DNA of 64,000 nucleotides from Aulosira sp. ZfuVER01 (GTDB lineage: Bacteria; Cyanobacteriota; Cyanobacteriia; Cyanobacteriales; Nostocaceae): contig JAVRCV020000065.1 in assembly GCA_034530615.2 (NCBI GenBank), positions 92,412 through 156,411 of the forward strand, in the 5' to 3' direction. The notes beneath the pieces were generated by a model, which saw only the letters and a program-made list of their open reading frames with translations, had not been told where the DNA came from and did not search any database. Below, piece after piece: positions 45,463 to 60,320 of the stretch (positions are counted from its first letter, which is position 1; the number at the start of each line of letters is the position of its first letter). The position numbers were made by a program, and so were the translations under genes.

Positions 45463-45567
45463 ACACGTAGGTTGATCGGCAGATAGAGTAATTATCGCCT
45501 AGCGATCGCTTGCTGTCAGTAACCCGATAAATCGCTATAATTCTGGTGAGTTTTGGGGAAACCAACC

Positions 45568-46371
45568 ATGTTAGAGTACAACCTGCCGAGGTACTTGCCC
45601 TCTGCCGAAGAACTACCAGACTCTGACGACACACCTGTGGATAATGAACTGCAAGAATTAATACCAGGTTTGCTGAAGGCAATACTGCTGATACTTTGGG
45701 CAGAACGCCTGGACTGGTTCTTTGGCGTAGATATGGGTATTTATTATCACCCTGATGAACCTGCTATTGTGCCTGATGGGTTTTTGAGTTTAGGGGTAGA
45801 GCGTTTTTATGATGAGGAATTGCGCCCCAGTTATGTGCTTTGGGATGAAAATGTTGTACCTAGTTTAGTGCTAGAGGTAGTTTCCCCAAATTATCGTAAG
45901 GAATACACGACTAAATTAGATCAATATGCGGAATTAGGCGTACTGTACTACATAATTTATTCTTCCCGCCGTCGCCGCAAACCGCGCCTGGAAGTGCATA
46001 AGTTAGTTAATGGTAGATATGAATTGCAACCAGGAAACCCAGTTTGGCTACCAGAAATTGGCTTAGGAATTGGCTGCGAAAGAGGAAACTATTGCGGTGT
46101 CACAAGGGAATGGCTGTATTGGTATACCGAGGAAGGTAAGCGTTATCCTACGCCCAAAGAACAAATTCAACAAGAAGCACAACGCGCCCAACAAGAGGCT
46201 CAACGCGCCCAACAAGAAACACAACGCGCTCAACAAGAAGCTCAACGCGCTCAACAAGAAGCTCAACGCGCTCAACAAGCAGAGCAACGCGCCCAACAAG
46301 CAGAGCAACGCGCTCAACAATTGGCAGAACAATTAAGAGCGTTAGGTATAGATCCTAATAATCTGGGTTAA
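45568..46371 (+). CDS. Uma2-family endonuclease-like protein with expanded coiled-coil tail
   Basis: LPDSDDTPVDNE, VPDGF and LEVVS motifs; (QQEAQRA)n tail ending LRALGIDP. Confidence 0.9.
   Translation: MLEYNLPRYLPSAEELPDSDDTPVDNELQELIPGLLKAILLILWAERLDWFFGVDMGIYYHPDEPAIVPDGFLSLGVERFYDEELRPSYVLWDENVVPSLVLEVVSPNYRKEYTTKLDQYAELGVLYYIIYSSRRRRKPRLEVHKLVNGRYELQPGNPVWLPEIGLGIGCERGNYCGVTREWLYWYTEEGKRYPTPKEQIQQEAQRAQQEAQRAQQETQRAQQEAQRAQQEAQRAQQAEQRAQQAEQRAQQLAEQLRALGIDPNNLG
46168..46320 (+). repeat. Coding 21-nt tandem repeat (about 7 copies, QQEAQRA/QQAEQRA)
   Basis: CAACAAGAAGCTCAACGCGCT-like units in frame in the Uma2 gene. Confidence 0.85.
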
Positions 46372-47428: not shown

Positions 47429-48175
47429 TTATGCGATCGCATCAGGGTCAACACCTAGCTCCCGTAACTTAGCTGCTAATATATCAGCACGTTGGCGTTC
47501 TTGTTCTGCGCGTTGGTGTTCTTGTTCAGCTTTTTCGCTACTCCACAATAGCAAATTTCCTTCGCTATCCCACCACCGTAGCCAATTCATGGTTTGGCAT
47601 AATCTTTCACCTTGCCAAATTCCGAGAAATAACTCCAACTCAGGAATCCAGAAACGCCCATTTGCATCTGCTGGCTGCAAAGTATATTGTCCATTTTGCC
47701 AGCAGCGTACTTCTAAACTTGGTTCGTAAGGGTCGTAGGTAACGTAGGTTGGAATCTTAAGAATCCGTTCGTAAAAATAGAGTTTACCGTAGGGTGGAGT
47801 TGAGCGAACTGATAATTCTCCGCCTTCAGTGTCTGAAAGAAATTCCATCACTACAGCCACCGCTGCGCCTTCTAAATTGGGAGTATAACTACGCCGAATT
47901 ACATCAGCAGCTACAGGCTGAACTTGAGGTACATAAAACCAGTCAGGTGCTTTGACAACGATTTTTTTGTTGACTGTGGCTACCAGTCCAAAATTAGAGC
48001 CAATCAACATCTGGGGTTGGATGCGTCCTGCTGTTCCTAAAGCATCGGTAAGCGCTGCGGCGAGAGGTGGTTGCTGAATATTTTCCACGGGATCGTCGGG
48101 TAAAATAAAGTCGGCTGGAAGTGCTTCCCAAGTGACAATTGGTTCTTTTTGGATGGGGTTAATTTGTAGAACCAT
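47429..48175 (-). CDS. Uma2-family endonuclease-like protein
   Basis: LPDDPVEN, KAPDWFYV and MEFLS motifs; tail LRELGVDP. Confidence 0.88.
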   Translation of the reverse strand: MVLQINPIQKEPIVTWEALPADFILPDDPVENIQQPPLAAALTDALGTAGRIQPQMLIGSNFGLVATVNKKIVVKAPDWFYVPQVQPVAADVIRRSYTPNLEGAAVAVVMEFLSDTEGGELSVRSTPPYGKLYFYERILKIPTYVTYDPYEPSLEVRCWQNGQYTLQPADANGRFWIPELELFLGIWQGERLCQTMNWLRWWDSEGNLLLWSSEKAEQEHQRAEQERQRADILAAKLRELGVDPDAIA

Positions 48176-48354
48176 AAAACTTTTCCTAGTATCAATTCCA
48201 AGTTATCAGTAAATATTTAAGTAGCCCACCAAAACCAGGATCTTGTGAGCAATGCCCACCCTACAATTAAAGGTCTACTGACTTTAAATTATCGTAAAAT
48301 CTTAAATGCTTGCTGAGGCTAGTGTATATACTCGTGGTCAGAATATAAACAGAC

Positions 48355-51300
48355 ATGAGTATGCTAATTGAATGGTTCACTACCTGGGTAGCTACCAAAG
48401 CCGTTGGATTTCTGGCCAAAACTATTATCAGCGAAGAGTTTGCTAAAGATTTAGTCAAAGACTGCGCTAAAGATTTTTTCAAATTTATCTTTAAAACTGC
48501 TGTAACAATGCCCTTTCAGCAAGAACCGCTGCAAAAAGCTGAAATCATGGCACTGACAGAATTTTTGCAACTGATGCAACAGGATTTAGAAGATGGCGAA
48601 CTTTATGAAAATGAAATTGAAAAGTATACGCAGCCAATCAAGCAATTTCTCAAGCATCCACAAGTCAGAGAAATTTTAGGCAATGCTTTTCAGCATGACT
48701 CTCAAGCTATAGATACCAAGAAATTAGCAGAAATTTGGTATCAACTTAATTCTTCATCCCCGTTACCAGATGATTTTAACTGGAAACGGGTTGGTAAGAA
48801 ATATGTGCAAAAAGTTAAAGAAATTATTTTAGGATTTTCTGAACTTAGAGAAATCCTTGATTCTAAGAATCTAGATAAAATTCGAGCAAATACAAAAGAG
48901 ATTGCCGGAATTATTCCTGAATTTGATTTAGAACGATATCAAGAAGCAATTCGTGAGAGCTACGGTAATCTCAAATTAGATAGCTTAGATACTAGTGGTT
49001 ACGCCTATAACGAACTGAAGTTATGGCGAATGTTTATTGCTCAAAATGTGCGGGAAGGTGAACAAGTTCTACCACAAGTTCACGCACTACCGAAAGAGCA
49101 TTTTAGACGGCTGCAAGAAACTAACCAACTAGAAGCAGCAGTTGCAGCAGTAGAATTAGAACAGCCGATACGTTCAGTATTAGATATAGTCAATAAAAAG
49201 CAAAAGTATAAATATATTGTGATTTTGGGCAATCCTGGTGCAGGTAAGTCTACTTTGTTGCAATATCTGGCTTTGAATTGGGCAGAGTCACCACTAAATA
49301 ATGTTATCTCCTTGCCGATTCCTTTATTAATTGAGTTACGCACTTATATGCGACGGCGAGATAATAATGAGTGCAGTAATTTTCTCGAGTTTTTCCATAA
49401 ATGTAGCGGTGCAATTTCTCACTTGAATCAACATCAACTGCACGAACAGCTTAAGGCTGGTAAAGCTTTGGTAATGTTTGATGGTTTGGATGAAGTCTTT
49501 GATCCTGGTAAGCGAGAGGATGTAATTACAGATATTCATCGCTTCACTAATGAGTATTCTAATGTGCAAGTGATTGTCACTTCTCGCGTAATTGGCTATA
49601 AACCGCAAAAATTGCGCGATGCTGAGTTTCGCCACTTCATGTTGCAAGATTTGGACTCATCACAAATTCAGGATTTTATTCACCGCTGGCATGAGTTAAC
49701 TTTTAGCGATGCAGCAGATAAAGTTAGGAAACGGGATCGATTGCAAAGAGGAATTGAAACTTCCAAAGCTATTACAGAATTAGCAGGTAATCCCCTGTTG
49801 TTGACGATGATAGCAATTCTCAATCGTAATCAGGAATTGCCCAGAGATAGAGCCGAACTTTATAAAAAAGCTTCAGAGGTTCTGCTGTATAAATGGGATG
49901 TGGAACGTGCTTTACTAGAAGATAAAACTTTAGATCATAAAACTATTCATTATAAAGAGAAGCAAGCGATGCTGCGTCAGGTTGCTTATTATATGCAAAC
50001 TAGTGGCAAAGGTTTAGCAGGTAATTTAATTAGAGAAGATGATTTAATCCAGATTTTGACGGACTATCTCAAAACTATAGAAGTCAGTCAAGCCAGAGCA
50101 TCTGCGAAGGTAATGATTGATAAATTGCGAACTCGCAACTTTATGTTATGTTTCGTAGGCGCAGATTACTATGCCTTTGTGCATAGAACATTTTTGGAAT
50201 ATTTCTGTGCTTCGGAGTTTATCTGGCAGTTTAAAGAAACACAAACCTTGACCATTGATAAACTTAAAAATGAAGTTTTTGGCAAGCACTGGCATGATGA
50301 GACTTGGCACGAAATCTTGCTGCTAATTGCAGGAATGATTGAGCCAAAATTCGTCGGTGAAATTCTGGAATACTTAATGCTGCAAGATGGCGAAGAGAGA
50401 AAGTTCGTCAATCTATTTTTAGCAGCTAAGTGCCTTGTAGATGTAAGAAATCGCTCGGTGATTGCGTCAACAGCGAATGAATTACTGAACAAGATAAAAG
50501 CTTTAACTAGCTATGACCTCTGTTACTATTACGTAGCATATCGGGACGAAGAAGAAACTCAGCTAGTTCAGGAGATTCGCACTCAAGCAGTTGCAGTTAT
50601 TGCAACAACTTGGCAAGAATCTCTTGACACCAAAACTTTCCTGAAAGACTGTGCTATCCAGGATGATAGGTGGGAGTGGGATGTGCGGGGTGCAGCAGTT
50701 AAAGCATTGGCTCAGAACTACAAAGATCACCCCGACACCAAAACCATCTTCAAAAACTATGCTACCCAAGATAAAAACTGGTATGTACGACATGCAGCAG
50801 TCGAAGCATTAGCGCAAAACTACAAAGATCACCCCGACACCAAAACCATCTTCAAAAACTATGCTACCCAGGATGATTATGAGTATGTCCGAAGTGCAGC
50901 AGTCCAAGCGTTAGCTCAGAACTTCAAAGATGACACCGACACTAAAACCTTTCTCAAAGACCGCGCTACCCACGATGAGAACTGGAATGTGCGAGGCGCA
51001 GCAATTCAAGAATTAGCTCAGAATTTCAAAGATGATCCCGACACCAAAATCTTTCTCAAAGACCGTGCTACCCACGATGATGATTCGGATGTGCGGCGTA
51101 TAGTAGTCGAAGCATTAGCTCAGAACTTCAAAGATGACCCCGACACCAAAACCTTCCTCAAAGACCGCGCTACCCAGGATGATAGTGCGAGTGTGCGAGG
51201 TACTGCTGTCTTAAAATTAGCCCAGAATTACAGAGATGACCCTGATACCAAAGCTTTGGTTAAAGACCGCGCTATCCACGATGATGATTCGGATGTGGGA

Positions 51301-52182
51301 CGTGCAGCTATTGAACAATTAGCGCAAAACTACAAAGATGACCCCGACACCAAAACTATTCTCAAAGATCGCGCTACCCATGATGATTATTCGGATGTGC
51401 GGGGTGTAGCCATAGAACAATTAGTGCAGAACTACAAAAATGATCCCGACACCCAAACCATCCTCAAAGACCGCGCTATCCACGATAATTATTCGGATGT
51501 GCGATGCGCAGCTGTCCAAGAATTAGCGCAGAACTACAAAGATGACCCCGATACCAAAACTATTCTTAAAGATCGCGCTATTCACGATGATTATTCGGAT
51601 GTGCGGGGTGTAGCCATAGAACAATTAGTGCAGAACTACAAAAATGATCCCGACACCCAAACCATCCTCAAAGACCGCGCTATCCACGATGATAACTCTG
51701 TGCGAGGTGCAGCCATTGAACAGTTAGCACGGAACTACAAAGATGATCCCAACACCAAAACTATCCTTAGAGACTGTGTTATCCAGGATGATAGTGCGAG
51801 TGTGAGAGATGTAGCTATCCGAGAATTAGCCAGAGGTTTCAAAGATGACCCTGACATCAAAACTATCCTCAAAGACCGTGCTAGCCAGGATAATCATTAC
51901 AATGTGCGAGGTGCAGCCATCGAACAATTAGCTAAGAATTTTAAATATGACTCTGCAATGTTTGAACTGTTTTATACTTGCGCGCTCAATGACCCCTTTG
52001 CTGGTAGTCATAGTAGTTTTCTTCGCAATCCTCGGTACATTGCGCTTGACATAATAATCAAGCAATTTCCTCAGCATCCCCAGACTTTACCACTGTTGCG
52101 CAACAAAGCAGAAAATGACCCAGATGAAAAAGTACGGGAGTTTGCTCAGAAGAAGTTGAAGCTGTGGGAAGGGAAAAGGTAA
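48355..52182 (+). CDS. NACHT (STAND) NTPase with C-terminal HEAT-like repeats (NLR-like)
   Basis: Walker A GNPGAGKST, Walker B MFDGLDE, VTSR, NPLLL, FVHRTFLEYF; about 13 repeats of about 34 aa. Confidence 0.9.
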   Translation: MSMLIEWFTTWVATKAVGFLAKTIISEEFAKDLVKDCAKDFFKFIFKTAVTMPFQQEPLQKAEIMALTEFLQLMQQDLEDGELYENEIEKYTQPIKQFLKHPQVREILGNAFQHDSQAIDTKKLAEIWYQLNSSSPLPDDFNWKRVGKKYVQKVKEIILGFSELREILDSKNLDKIRANTKEIAGIIPEFDLERYQEAIRESYGNLKLDSLDTSGYAYNELKLWRMFIAQNVREGEQVLPQVHALPKEHFRRLQETNQLEAAVAAVELEQPIRSVLDIVNKKQKYKYIVILGNPGAGKSTLLQYLALNWAESPLNNVISLPIPLLIELRTYMRRRDNNECSNFLEFFHKCSGAISHLNQHQLHEQLKAGKALVMFDGLDEVFDPGKREDVITDIHRFTNEYSNVQVIVTSRVIGYKPQKLRDAEFRHFMLQDLDSSQIQDFIHRWHELTFSDAADKVRKRDRLQRGIETSKAITELAGNPLLLTMIAILNRNQELPRDRAELYKKASEVLLYKWDVERALLEDKTLDHKTIHYKEKQAMLRQVAYYMQTSGKGLAGNLIREDDLIQILTDYLKTIEVSQARASAKVMIDKLRTRNFMLCFVGADYYAFVHRTFLEYFCASEFIWQFKETQTLTIDKLKNEVFGKHWHDETWHEILLLIAGMIEPKFVGEILEYLMLQDGEERKFVNLFLAAKCLVDVRNRSVIASTANELLNKIKALTSYDLCYYYVAYRDEEETQLVQEIRTQAVAVIATTWQESLDTKTFLKDCAIQDDRWEWDVRGAAVKALAQNYKDHPDTKTIFKNYATQDKNWYVRHAAVEALAQNYKDHPDTKTIFKNYATQDDYEYVRSAAVQALAQNFKDDTDTKTFLKDRATHDENWNVRGAAIQELAQNFKDDPDTKIFLKDRATHDDDSDVRRIVVEALAQNFKDDPDTKTFLKDRATQDDSASVRGTAVLKLAQNYRDDPDTKALVKDRAIHDDDSDVGRAAIEQLAQNYKDDPDTKTILKDRATHDDYSDVRGVAIEQLVQNYKNDPDTQTILKDRAIHDNYSDVRCAAVQELAQNYKDDPDTKTILKDRAIHDDYSDVRGVAIEQLVQNYKNDPDTQTILKDRAIHDDNSVRGAAIEQLARNYKDDPNTKTILRDCVIQDDSASVRDVAIRELARGFKDDPDIKTILKDRASQDNHYNVRGAAIEQLAKNFKYDSAMFELFYTCALNDPFAGSHSSFLRNPRYIALDIIIKQFPQHPQTLPLLRNKAENDPDEKVREFAQKKLKLWEGKR
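50590..51950 (+). repeat. Coding tandem repeats with a 102-nt period (34-aa HEAT-like units)
   Basis: Units of form VR.AA...LAQNYKDDPDTKT.LKDRA..DD, including near-identical recent duplications. Confidence 0.88.
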
Positions 52183-52404
52183 AGGGGTAAGGGGAAAGGG
52201 GTAAATTCATTCCTTTGCCCTTTTTCATTGAGCGAGAATTATTAATATGGTATCTGTTTAGACGGGCTTAGTAGCTTGTTACCAGTCATCGCTCCTCAAT
52301 TTTTCTCACAATTCCAGCAAAATGTTCGATTAGCCTTAGCAGTGGGAATTATATACTGAGCAATTAATGCTACTCAGTTTATATAGTTACCGGGTGAATC
52401 TACA

Positions 52405-52881
52405 ATGGCTTATCAAAATATCACTGCTACCGTTTCGTCAGAAGATATTCAAGAAATTAAAGCAGCGCTACAGACAATTCACAATAAGCTACCCTTTCTC
52501 GTTACCCTCAGCACTGAAGAGCGGCGCAAGTTAGTCAAAATGGGCGATAAAAGCCTAGCCTTTGTGAACAATAGCGTCAGTGCGGCGCAGTCTAACCGTG
52601 AAATTCTCCCAGCCAGCTTTAACATCGAGGAATTTGTCCAGGATTATCAATTAGCCACCACACTCACCGAACTTTTAACCTCAATGCGGCAACTCACCGA
52701 GCAAGTCGATGATACCCTTTTGGCAGTCGGTAGTGAAGCCATGAGCAGCAGTTTGACAGTTTATGATTATGTCAAAACAGCTGCGAAAAAGACTCCAGGC
52801 TTAAAAACTCTAGCAGAACAGTTAGGTGAACGCTTCAAAGCTCTCAAAGGTAGACCTGTTAAAGCTACATCTGGTAATTGA
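52405..52881 (+). CDS. Uncharacterised 158-aa alpha-helical protein directly upstream of a 21-nt repeat array
   Basis: Clean ORF (LPFLVTLSTEERRKLVKMGDKS...DDTLLAVGSEAM...YDYVKTAA); no recognisable catalytic motif. Confidence 0.82.
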   Translation: MAYQNITATVSSEDIQEIKAALQTIHNKLPFLVTLSTEERRKLVKMGDKSLAFVNNSVSAAQSNREILPASFNIEEFVQDYQLATTLTELLTSMRQLTEQVDDTLLAVGSEAMSSSLTVYDYVKTAAKKTPGLKTLAEQLGERFKALKGRPVKATSGN

Positions 52882-52885
52882 TAAA

Positions 52886-53213
52886 TTAATACTGCTCAAC
52901 GAGGCTTGGAACTCCGTTAACCAGCCTCCAATACTCATTAACCAGTCTTTGAACTCCGTTAACCAGTCTCAGATACTCGTTAACCAGGCTCCAATACTCA
53001 TTAATCAGTCTTTGAACTCCGTTAACCAGTCTTTGAACTCCGTTAATCAGTCTCAGATACTCGTTAACCAGGCTCAGAACTCCGTTAATCAGTCTCAGAT
53101 AATCGTTAACCAGTCTTTGAACTCCGTTAACCAGGCTCAGAACTCCGTTAACCAGGCTCAGATACTCGTTAACCAGGCTCAGATACTCGTTAACCAGCCT
53201 TAGAACTCCGTTA
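52886..53213. repeat. Modular 21-nt tandem array: 14 full units (52907-53200) plus degenerate flanking units
   Basis: Unit = (TTG/CAG/CCA/TGG)(AACTCC/ATACTC)(G/A)TTAA(C/T)CAG(T/G/C)CT. Confidence 0.93.
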
Positions 53214-53761
53214 GACAGCATTGCTATCCGAAAATTCAACTATCTCATTTCAGGCAAAGACTGAGAACTTTGATATTATGGCAGGCGATCGCCCGTAATT
53301 GTTCGTAGATCATCAAAAACTACAACCAATGTAGTATCGACAATGTTGCGAGTTATGTACCATAATTCTTTTTCGGATTCATGAGCAAGCGCTCACTCTC
53401 AACCTCTGAAGTATTTCGTAACTTAAAAATTAGCTGTTTTCATCCGTTGATAGCTCTGCATCCATCGCCCATTTGCTTGCGTAATAACACTTAAGTATAT
53501 GCAAGTAAGTATACGTAAAAAATAAAAAAAGTATTAACTATTTAAGGCTGAAACCCTTTTATTGATATAAATAACCAAGCAAATCTATAAGTATGTAGGT
53601 TGTATTAAATAAATAAATAGTCCAAGCGATCGCCTTCATAAATTCACCGTAAATACCCTGATATCCTCCCCCCCCACCTAGAGAAATTCCGCAATAACAC
53701 GGTTACGTCATTTTGTTGTTCAGATCAAAATGACGAATATCCAGTTTAGGAGGGTAGATTT

Positions 53762-57960: not shown

Positions 57961-59391
57961 ATGTCTTACGCTCAAACGAAGACTCAGTCAAAAACTGGGT
58001 ATCAAGCCGGGGTTAAAGATTATAGACTGACTTACTACACCCCCGATTACACACCTAAAGATACAGATGTTCTGGCCGCTTTCCGGATGACTCCCCAACC
58101 CGGAGTTCCACCCGAAGAAGCTGGTGCTGCTGTAGCTGCTGAGTCTTCCACAGGTACTTGGACCACCGTATGGACAGACTTGCTCACTGACCTAGACCGC
58201 TACAAAGGTCGTTGCTACGATATTGAACCCGTTGCTGGTGAAGACAACCAATACATTGCATACGTTGCTTATCCTCTAGACTTGTTTGAGGAAGGCTCCG
58301 TCACCAACATGTTGACCTCTATCGTAGGTAACGTGTTTGGTTTCAAAGCCTTACGGGCACTGCGTTTAGAAGACTTACGGATTCCAGTTGCTTATCTAAA
58401 GACCTTCCAAGGACCTCCTCACGGTATCCAAGTTGAGCGTGACAAATTAAACAAATACGGTCGTCCTTTACTGGGTTGTACAATCAAACCCAAATTAGGT
58501 CTGTCTGCTAAGAACTACGGACGCGCTGTATACGAGTGTTTGCGCGGTGGTTTGGACTTCACCAAAGACGACGAAAACATCAACTCTGCACCATTCCAAC
58601 GTTGGCGCGATCGCTTCTTGTTTGTAGCAGAAGCAATCCACAAAGCACAAGCAGAAACCGGCGAAATCAAAGGTCACTACCTAAACGTTACCGCCCCCAC
58701 CTGCGAACAAATGTTGCAACGGGCTGAGTTCGCTAAAGAACTCAAAATGCCCATCATCATGCACGACTACCTAACCGCAGGTTTCACCGCCAACACCACA
58801 TTGGCTCGTTGGTGCCGTGATAACGGTATTCTGCTGCACATCCACCGCGCGATGCACGCTGTAATCGACCGTCAAAAGAACCACGGTATCCACTTCCGCG
58901 TTTTGGCTAAAACCCTGCGGATGTCTGGTGGTGACCACATTCACACCGGTACAGTGGTTGGTAAATTGGAAGGTGAACGCGGCATCACAATGGGCTTCGT
59001 TGACCTGTTGCGCGAAAACTATGTTGAACAAGACAAGTCTCGCGGTATTTACTTCACCCAAGACTGGGCTTCTATGCCTGGTGTAATGGCAGTTGCTTCT
59101 GGTGGTATCCACGTATGGCACATGCCTGCACTAGTAGAAATCTTTGGTGATGACTCCGTTCTCCAATTCGGTGGTGGTACACTCGGTCACCCCTGGGGTA
59201 ACGCACCTGGTGCAACCGCTAACCGCGTGGCTTTGGAAGCTTGTATCCAAGCTCGTAACGAAGGCCGTAACTTGGCTCGTGAAGGTAACGACGTTATCCG
59301 CGAAGCTGCTAAGTGGTCTCCAGAACTAGCTGTAGCCTGCGAATTGTGGAAAGAAATTAAATTTGAATTCGAGGCAATGGATACCGTCTGA
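57961..59391 (+). CDS. rbcL: RuBisCO large subunit (form IB)
   Basis: [11 protein letters not shown] catalytic motif; 476 aa. Confidence 0.99.
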
Positions 59392-59437
59392 TCCTCAAGT
59401 AACTAGTAAAAAGTTAAAAGGTAAAAAAAACTTTTTA

Positions 59438-59494
59438 CCCTTACGGGTTCGCCACTTACTATAAGCCGGGAAACCCGTCCAACGTAGTGGCTCA
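59438..59494 (+). repeat. Small dispersed repeat inserted in the rbcL-rbcX spacer hairpin
   Basis: CGCCACTT...CGGGAAACCCG..CAACGTAGTGGCT interrupts the (ACTTTTT)n arm of an STRR inverted repeat. Confidence 0.6.
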
Positions 59495-59538
59495 CTTTTT
59501 ACTTTTGACTTTTTACTTTTTATGGGCTGGGGTCAAGC

Positions 59539-59946
59539 ATGAATCTTAAGCAAATTGCGAAAGACACAGCCAAGACTCTCCAAAGTTACCTGACTTATCA
59601 GGCACTAAGGACGGTACTGGCACAGCTAGGCGAAACTAATCCTCCATTGGCAATTTGGCTACATAATTTTTCTGCTGACAAAATTCAGGATGGAGAATCT
59701 TATATTGCCCAATTGTTAAAAGAGAAGCCAGATTTGGCATTGCGGATAATGACTGTCAGAGAACACATTGCTGAGGAGATTGCAGAATTCTTACCGGAAA
59801 TGGTTCGTACTGGTATTCAGCAAGCCAATATGGAACAGCGTCGCCAGCATCTAGAGCGAATCACTCTCATAGAGACATCAAACCCCAGTCTGCAACAGGA
59901 ACAGCAAACAAGCTCAGATCCAAATTTGGATAACTTATCTAGTTAG
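59539..59946 (+). CDS. rbcX: RuBisCO assembly chaperone RbcX
   Basis: [22 protein letters not shown]; located between rbcL and rbcS. Confidence 0.97.
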
Positions 59947-59990
59947 CCGAACAACGTAGTCGTAAAAATCGCAACCCATTATCAACAGCT

Positions 59991-60320
59991 ATGCAAACTT
60001 TACCAAAAGAGCGTCGTTACGAAACCCTTTCCTATCTACCTCCCCTGTCTGACGCTCAAATTGCCAAGCAGATCCAGTACATCCTGACCCAAGGTTACAT
60101 CCCAGCAGTTGAGTTTAACGAGACTTCTGAGCCTACCGAGTTCTTCTGGACAATGTGGAAACTGCCTTTGTTTGGCGCTAAATCTACTCAAGAAGTATTG
60201 AACGAAGTTCAAGCTTGCCGTTCTCAGTATTCCAACCAATATATCCGTGTTGTCGGTTTTGATAACATCAAGCAGTGTCAAGTTCTCAGCTTTATCGTTC
60301 ACAAACCCAGCAGATACTAA
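59991..60320 (+). CDS. rbcS: RuBisCO small subunit
   Basis: [19 protein letters not shown] and IRVVGFDN motifs. Confidence 0.98.

Follow-up and report, generated by a model that had tools for sequence, protein, structure and literature searches.

The DNA analysed here (the window) is a stretch of 64,000 nucleotides from Aulosira sp. ZfuVER01, whose assembly comprises 83 contigs and 8.03 Mb in total. The best protein matches, like the rbcL-rbcX-rbcS-like genes noted below, agree with a cyanobacterium of Nostocales type. On its plus strand, an open reading frame at 52405..52881 encodes a 158-aa protein of an unnamed family, predicted to form an antiparallel homodimer (see below), and is followed by a non-coding array with a period of 21 nt (TRF at 52909-53213: period 21, 14.5 copies, 79% matches, score 316). 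The array consists of 14 full 21-bp units (52916..53209), preceded by a decayed first unit that shares their register (52895..52915) and followed by a partial last unit (53210..53218), where homology with relatives that lack the block restarts. Each unit combines the core RTTAAY with CAG and three variable slots that take few states (TCT, GCT or CCT in slot 1; TTG, CAG or CCA, and once TAG, in slot 2; AACTCC or ATACTC, and once ATAATC, in slot 3), which bears out, in register, the modular unit given in a preliminary description of this locus. Slots with few recurring states, no unique spacers and no match of the array in Rfam likewise uphold its view that the array is not a CRISPR. Two of its details need correction: the array does not begin 5 nt past the stop, since 13 nt separate the stop from the first in-register unit and 34 nt from the first complete one (an ATTAAT at 52885, near the stop, is out of register), and the suggested traces of a 63-nt higher-order repeat do not stand out from shuffled unit order (lag-63 unit identity 0.814 against 0.768, p = 0.12; lag 84, p = 0.16). 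A chance origin of the periodicity is excluded; of 1500 regions sampled downstream of genes in the host genome, 33 reach the same periodicity score.

Upstream of the gene, on the same strand, lie a NACHT and HEAT-repeat (NLR-like) gene (48355..52182; Pfam NNH2, NACHT, and HEAT_2) and a conserved element (52344..52377) with GGGAAT, a −10-like hexamer (TATACT) and an inverted repeat, possibly a promoter plus operator or 5′ hairpin. The inverted repeat, similar to TAGCA-N5-TGCTA and unlike the array unit, overlaps the −10-like hexamer at a fixed position (−47/−48) in 11 of 22 loci of the subfamily. Another 21-nt repeat of the window (46167-46320) lies within a Uma2-type gene (45553-46371) and encodes QQEAQRA heptads; it is coding and unrelated to the array at 52916-53209.

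The 158-aa protein matches no family in Pfam, NCBIfam, PHROGs or PADLOC, and the same holds for 114 family members scanned; together with the fold searches described below, this supports its earlier characterization as an orphan of no known function. The best hit of a sequence search against the PDB was a dynein coiled coil (E = 0.004), nothing usable, and the ESM Atlas returned unnamed clusters only; an automatic label from the latter, "methyl-accepting chemotaxis protein," was rejected for want of Pfam support. The family is large (876 matches at 90% clustering; 2388 clusters at 50% identity), and its loci are found in Cyanobacteriota, Bacteroidota, Ignavibacteriota, Calditrichota, KSB1, Acidobacteriota, and Pseudomonadota, a listing based on the 80 of 202 confirmed stretches that were kept. 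It is rare on mobile DNA, with matches in 1 of 72,556 plasmid records, no phage record and one weak viral contig; two metagenome scans yielded 0 and 1 locus (L232), and a viral scan none. Two members (P0144 and P0181) carry about 70 extra residues at the C-terminus that look beta-rich. The host genome encodes four paralogues, each with an array, one of which sits behind a gene with an internal stop (G000:C22:147-611); elsewhere in that genome, a short gene fragment (G000:C79:85741-85848) adjoins a 63-nt array on the fragment's 5′ side.

Linkage of gene and array was scored from the best 84-nt window with lag-21 or lag-42 identity of at least 0.6 within 900 nt downstream of the gene, omitting loci with partial gene matches or less than 400 nt of flank. 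By this score, and with counts that overstate independence because many loci are close kin (34 Nostoc rows, for example, are near-identical), an array lies 3′ of the gene at 70 of 80 cyanobacterial and 9 of 23 non-cyanobacterial loci (13 of 23 at a threshold of 0.55), against 3 of 83 and 0 of 23 in the upstream control and the background of 33 in 1500 random gene ends of the host genome. Only lags of 21, 42, and 63 peak downstream of the gene. Among 40 further, lower-scoring cyanobacterial loci, one of them without flank, an array follows 18 of the 30 genes that are intact and 4 of the 9 that are broken. The gene and its array therefore belong together, as had been proposed on the basis of a single locus. 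A clear array is absent from 12 of the 30 intact paralogues of the lower-scoring set, among them the whole of a divergent subgroup in three genomes (G080, G158, and G294), from 10–14 of the 23 non-cyanobacterial loci and, by eye, from the Thiodictyon plasmid copy.

The 21-nt period persists among homologues as the unit sequence diverges: array 5-mer similarity falls from 0.81 at protein identities of at least 90% to about 0.1 at 30–40%, and four protein types pair with four unit families; the accompanying protein tree comes from a quick search. In Cyanobacteriota, Acidobacteriota, Ignavibacteriota, Calditrichota, and Bacteroidota alike, the array stays on the same side of the gene and retains its period, though all other neighbors change. 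At the orthologous site of three related genomes (G303, G312, and G310) the gene is kept, and the length and module mix of the array differ. A module, GGAGCAAAAAG, is common to arrays of Calditrichota and Cyanobacteriota (L095, L103, L049, L008, and G000:C4:23824), which suggests that the arrays are homologous across the two phyla. At six loci (L048, L058, L083, L086, L095, and L103) a motif of the GGGGTA/TACCCC type stands at the array end, 170–380 nt past the stop, and may be a conserved terminus of arrays in Bacteroidota, Calditrichota, and KSB1. At L008, a tandem repeat of 52 nt lies between gene and array, 128–334 nt past the stop; 52 nt is the other fixed repeat size, reported for Firmicutes only (PMC8161180).

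The host genome holds 17 arrays of the unit family found at 52916-53209, of which 15 have no gene on the assembled contig (3 of the 15 lie near a contig end). More broadly, it contains 93 arrays with periods of 20–22, 41–43 or 63, some of them of period 20; 79 lie outside long ORFs and 4 adjoin the gene, most of the 79 belonging to unit families with no gene alongside, and no second recurrent gene was found beside the other array families of this genome. About ten further modular families of 21, 42 or 63 nt and one of 20 nt, with no recurrent adjoining gene, can be recognized there (example sites: C8:81522, C15:176005, C16:86893, C1:32544, C46:4547, C49:8037, and C66:64014). The preliminary description had counted arrays elsewhere, independent of the gene, against the link; this is what is seen locally, in the 15 gene-less arrays, and not genome-wide, where arrays track the gene, so that the link is extended rather than refuted. 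A pattern of three units occurs in 15 of 21 gene-bearing and 0 of 280 gene-free genomes of the phylum (301 in all), and in 41 of 58 gene-bearing and 2 of 93 gene-free genomes of the family, in samples that overlap and with matches that include the gene-adjacent array itself. All 14 genomes with at least 20 pattern matches carry a homologue, and a second, unrelated 21-nt family without an adjoining gene occurs in 7 of the 301 genomes, all seven gene-bearing. One genome (G035) has neither gene nor pattern, and three congeneric genomes have both; the exceptions are G315 (99% complete) and G378 (79%), which have the pattern without the gene. In G409 (520 contigs), with 48 pattern matches, the only gene detected belongs to another subfamily.

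Many of the gene-less arrays sit in tracts of heptamer or nonamer repeats. The small dispersed and heptamer (STRR) repeats of Nostocales are said to have been described by Elhai and coworkers in 2008, and we know of no partner gene for them; the arrays resemble them in being small repeated elements of the same intergenic regions, many of the 21-nt arrays lying inside the heptamer or nonamer tracts themselves.

Within the unit, the near-palindromic core RTTAAY is followed by two arms that three variable bases separate, and the sequences seen in the left arm are largely reverse complements of those seen in the right. Core and complementary arms (arm-NNN-arm) thus give two pseudo-dyads per 21 bp, and hence equivalent half-sites once per helical turn. 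The pairing of arms is close to that of shuffled arms, both within units (3.09 against 3.03) and across the core (2.94 against 3.01), and arms without clear covariation fit symmetric sites better than selected hairpins. Over all families, the self-complementarity of the consensus unit is modest (12.6 against 10.8 of 21).

An AlphaFold2 model of the protein (114-row alignment; mean pLDDT 96, pTM 0.79) consists of five helices (residues 12-28, 37-42, 48-63, 74-126, and 133-148), the fourth of which spans 53 residues, and has no beta strand, in agreement with the helical protein first described. Foldseek returned no match at E ≤ 0.001 among PDB and viral structures, and the best VIA match (Z 6.4 over 67 residues, rmsd 4.2) covers a helical hairpin only. 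Across these searches (Foldseek against PDB and viral structures, wide VIA) matches were to generic hairpins, with none to a known DNA-binding fold such as the ribbon-helix-helix or helix-turn-helix; empty family and structure libraries do not prove the fold new. The net charge of the family is about zero, and the only basic stretches are residues 31-50 (+1.4) and 141-158 (+3.0).

Residue couplings were derived by mean-field covariation from 363 sequences, with an Neff of only 178. The couplings F72-V119, F77-S116, L68-V119, I67-T130, L90-V101, and M94-V101 all have i+j of 187–197; this band, picked after the couplings had been inspected, holds 6 of the 7 top couplings inside residues 66-131 (17% expected) and is enriched among the top 45 couplings (p = 0.003). 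An alpha helix rises 1.5 Å per residue, which would place the coupled residues up to about 70 Å apart in a straight helix, too far for contact within one chain, and they most likely touch between chains. The model and couplings point most readily to an antiparallel dimer centered near residue 96. The dual couplings of F31 (with L83 and T104) and of L35 (with L87 and A107) behave as would those of symmetric mates, and a coupling of S50 with R143 sets the conserved head beside the C-terminal helix.

The gene-array pair is real, widespread and unexplained. The reading that we favor for the observed linkage, period, symmetry, non-coding status, and dispersal, to which we assign a probability of about one half, is that a two-fold symmetric, rod-shaped dimer of the predicted kind binds the double-stranded 21-bp units beside its gene, and likely those of the gene-less copies as well. 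Of the three options offered in the preliminary description (a repeat RNA, a multi-site DNA-binding platform, and a peptide partner), the platform fits best, with the unit as a candidate site. In such a dimer, the 53-residue helix would pair antiparallel with its mate about a dyad near residue 96, and the basic head of one chain (R40, K45-G47-K49, and S50) would lie beside the C-terminal helices and basic tail of the other (Y120, K124, R143, and F144). The two ends would then be some 70–80 Å apart, close to the length of 21 bp (71 Å), so that the dimer could set the period in the manner of a ruler; successive dimers might coat one face of the DNA, and gene-less arrays would provide further docking sites. 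Candidate outcomes for the cell are local DNA bridging, nucleoid organization, or the upkeep of a selfish unit of gene plus array that seeds gene-less copies. A more ambitious version, which we regard as rather unlikely as a whole, holds that this large, multi-phylum family of helical dimers is a ruler over two turns of DNA that makes or maintains bacterial "satellite" arrays. The 21-bp code would be specific to the paralogue, and the protein would seed and rewrite gene-less arrays over the chromosome with no transposase fold.

Phased short repeats beside the gene of a small dimeric protein are familiar from parC-ParR, sopC-SopB, and plasmid iterons. The present arrays resemble such partition centromeres and iterons in that phased repeats adjoin the gene, but no ATPase/NTPase or Rep gene is linked to them, and the pairs are chromosomal and multi-copy, with a single match among the 72,556 plasmid records. 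In form, the arrays fit the fixed 20–21 nt non-coding tandem repeats that Subirana and Messeguer reported for Cyanobacteria and called enigmatic (PMC8161180). That report, with data mainly on Bacillus, equates 21 nt with two helix turns and suggests an unknown protein polymerizing along DNA; its available part names no partner protein, nor do those of two other reports (PMC6749651; PMC8625621). The arrays described here share with the constant-size repeats a period of 20–21, at least four units, a sequence that varies between families, several families per genome and non-coding status, and differ from them, as far as the published account goes, in their tie to a single family of genes. In the main texts of openly accessible papers, no account of such a pair of gene and array was found; supplements may list these repeats. 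The family would supply a candidate partner protein, with thousands of members, for the enigmatic fixed-length repeats, together with a structural reason for their period and cognate protein-array pairs that can be swapped. The question of the repeats' partner is now testable in laboratory Nostocales, where four paralogues and dozens of arrays occur in one genome. If the protein indeed has a new fold that binds DNA, its natural variants in specificity would also be of general interest.

The rival that survives best, though we consider it improbable, is that the protein helps to make or move the arrays. By marking or bridging their DNA, it would allow enzymes of the host to place copies of about 300 bp at new sites and to alter them 21 bp at a time. 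This rival draws on the near confinement of gene-less arrays to gene-bearing genomes and on the turnover of the arrays: when 20 arrays were fetched from two related genomes (G303 and G312) and nine sites compared base by base with their orthologous sites in the host genome, the array was absent at five, reduced to about 1.5 units at one and present at three. Unrelated gene-less sites have end sequences in common, which indicates that arrays are copied in blocks of about 300 bp. Arrays also expand, shrink and are rewritten within a fixed vocabulary, their interiors being wholly rewritten between strains; at one intergenic site in six strains, five have a long array with differing interiors and the sixth about two units. 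However, the protein has no catalytic motif or fold, the nine sites inspected include neither a clean empty site nor a target duplication, other repeats having replaced the intervals, and, with many copies in heptamer and nonamer tracts, their movement could be passive, through ectopic recombination; the co-occurrence would be explained as well by common descent from a gene-adjacent array.

This scenario follows the logic of REPIN-RAYT systems without a transposase. In those systems, RAYT is a tyrosine transposase of the HUH type and REPINs are inverted doublets (Bertels and Rainey, PMC3116915). As there, a cluster of repeats stands beside the gene, gene-less copies are dispersed and paralogues have their own repeat flavors. 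The protein here differs in being all-helical and without an HUH/Y1 match (by Pfam, NCBIfam, motif, and model), neither a conserved HUH motif nor another catalytic motif being found in the 158-aa protein family, and the arrays differ in being head-to-tail 21-bp repeats of fixed period, with no inverted doublet.

Next in rank, and also improbable, is that the array acts as RNA, either as a 3′ extension of the transcript or separately, which the protein binds or which is cut to multiples of 21 nt, loosely in the manner of type III toxin-antitoxin systems. The array folds more stably than its shuffles (z of −5.8 for the minus and −2.4 for the plus strand), the median distance from stop to array is 49 nt, and no plus-strand terminator was called ahead of the array in the window. 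On the other hand, the gene-less arrays have mixed orientation to their flanking genes (6 sense, 4 antisense, 3 between divergent genes, and 2 undetermined); at eight loci, all non-cyanobacterial (L033, L034, L036, L037, L044, L058, L095, and L103), a hairpin and U-run are seen by eye between stop and array; and other repeats are inserted in that interval, often in cyanobacteria, up to about 630 nt. Arm pairing, as given above, is near that of shuffled arms, and Rfam has no match. One RNA run, in which 4% of the words are present and whose contigs are mostly less than 90% alike, is uninformative on expression. The repeat RNA of the preliminary description is therefore weakened, by mixed orientation, pre-array hairpins and arms without covariation, rather than refuted. 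In type III toxin-antitoxin systems (ToxIN, CptIN, and TenpIN) the array lies upstream, with a terminator after it, its RNA folds into a pseudoknot and the protein is an RNase. The pair shares with them a small gene and short tandem repeats, but its array is downstream (an upstream array being found at 3 of 83 and 0 of 23 loci) and unmatched in Rfam, and none of the 114 members matches an RNase family of the ToxN, CptN or TenpN type.

Below this stands the unlikely case of an inherited cassette, in which the protein makes no contact with the array, which a different factor of the host would recognize or which slippage would have produced in passing. Arrays without a cognate gene, genes without arrays and the neutral net charge of the protein would suit such a cassette; mere linkage would decay, however, whereas period and side are kept over five phyla despite the change of neighbors.

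A coding role, in which either strand of the array would specify a heptad-repeat peptide as partner for the long helix of the protein, is highly improbable. The period equals seven codons, and open frames of 125 aa (52826-53203, plus strand) and 117 aa (52886..53239, minus strand) span the array, each most likely no gene. P0271 (330 aa), the single longer form among 8000 scored candidates, reads in frame into array-derived heptads, an extension that probably reflects loss of the stop in one lineage, and the minus frame of the Nostoc 42-mers has acquired 1 new stop against 4.1 ± 1.8 expected. Yet no frame combines an excess of synonymous changes with a deficit of stops (49 and 81 unique changes). 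Among 78 arrays, some plus frame is open in 46 and some minus frame in 48, with no peptide in common, and at L003, L004, and L006 every 42-mer interrupts the homologous minus frame with a stop; self-pairing accounts for the long helix. With these frame tests, the variable heptad partner suggested earlier fails.

Least probable of all is a role of the module in NLR-linked defense against phage, the conflict role once hinted at: the NACHT-HEAT gene is also upstream at the orthologous site in G303, G310, and G312, and neighbors are often genes of variable regions, but such a gene or a piece of it precedes only 4 of 105 loci, no PADLOC family is common to more than 2 of the 114 members, and the family has no phage copy and one weak viral-contig match. 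The NACHT-HEAT gene is a local neighbor that stands outside the module, and the other neighbors of the gene-array pair vary freely, with no constant partner.

The surroundings of the pair show further variation between strains. In two genomes (G308, L113; G306, L114) a 5.6-kb block is missing that corresponds to 47580-53207 of the window, from the interior of the Uma2-type gene to the array end; the joints differ slightly between the two, and one of them has an overlap of 4 nt. Position 47579 is thereby joined to 53208, a junction that was considered as an empty site and rejected, since it cuts the Uma2-type gene and is thus a deletion. In G312, a two-gene insert (L116:190-660), which we take to resemble a HicA/HicB pair, separates the NACHT gene from the helical gene. 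Downstream in the window, positions 57961-60320 hold what are presumably rbcL-rbcX-rbcS-like genes.
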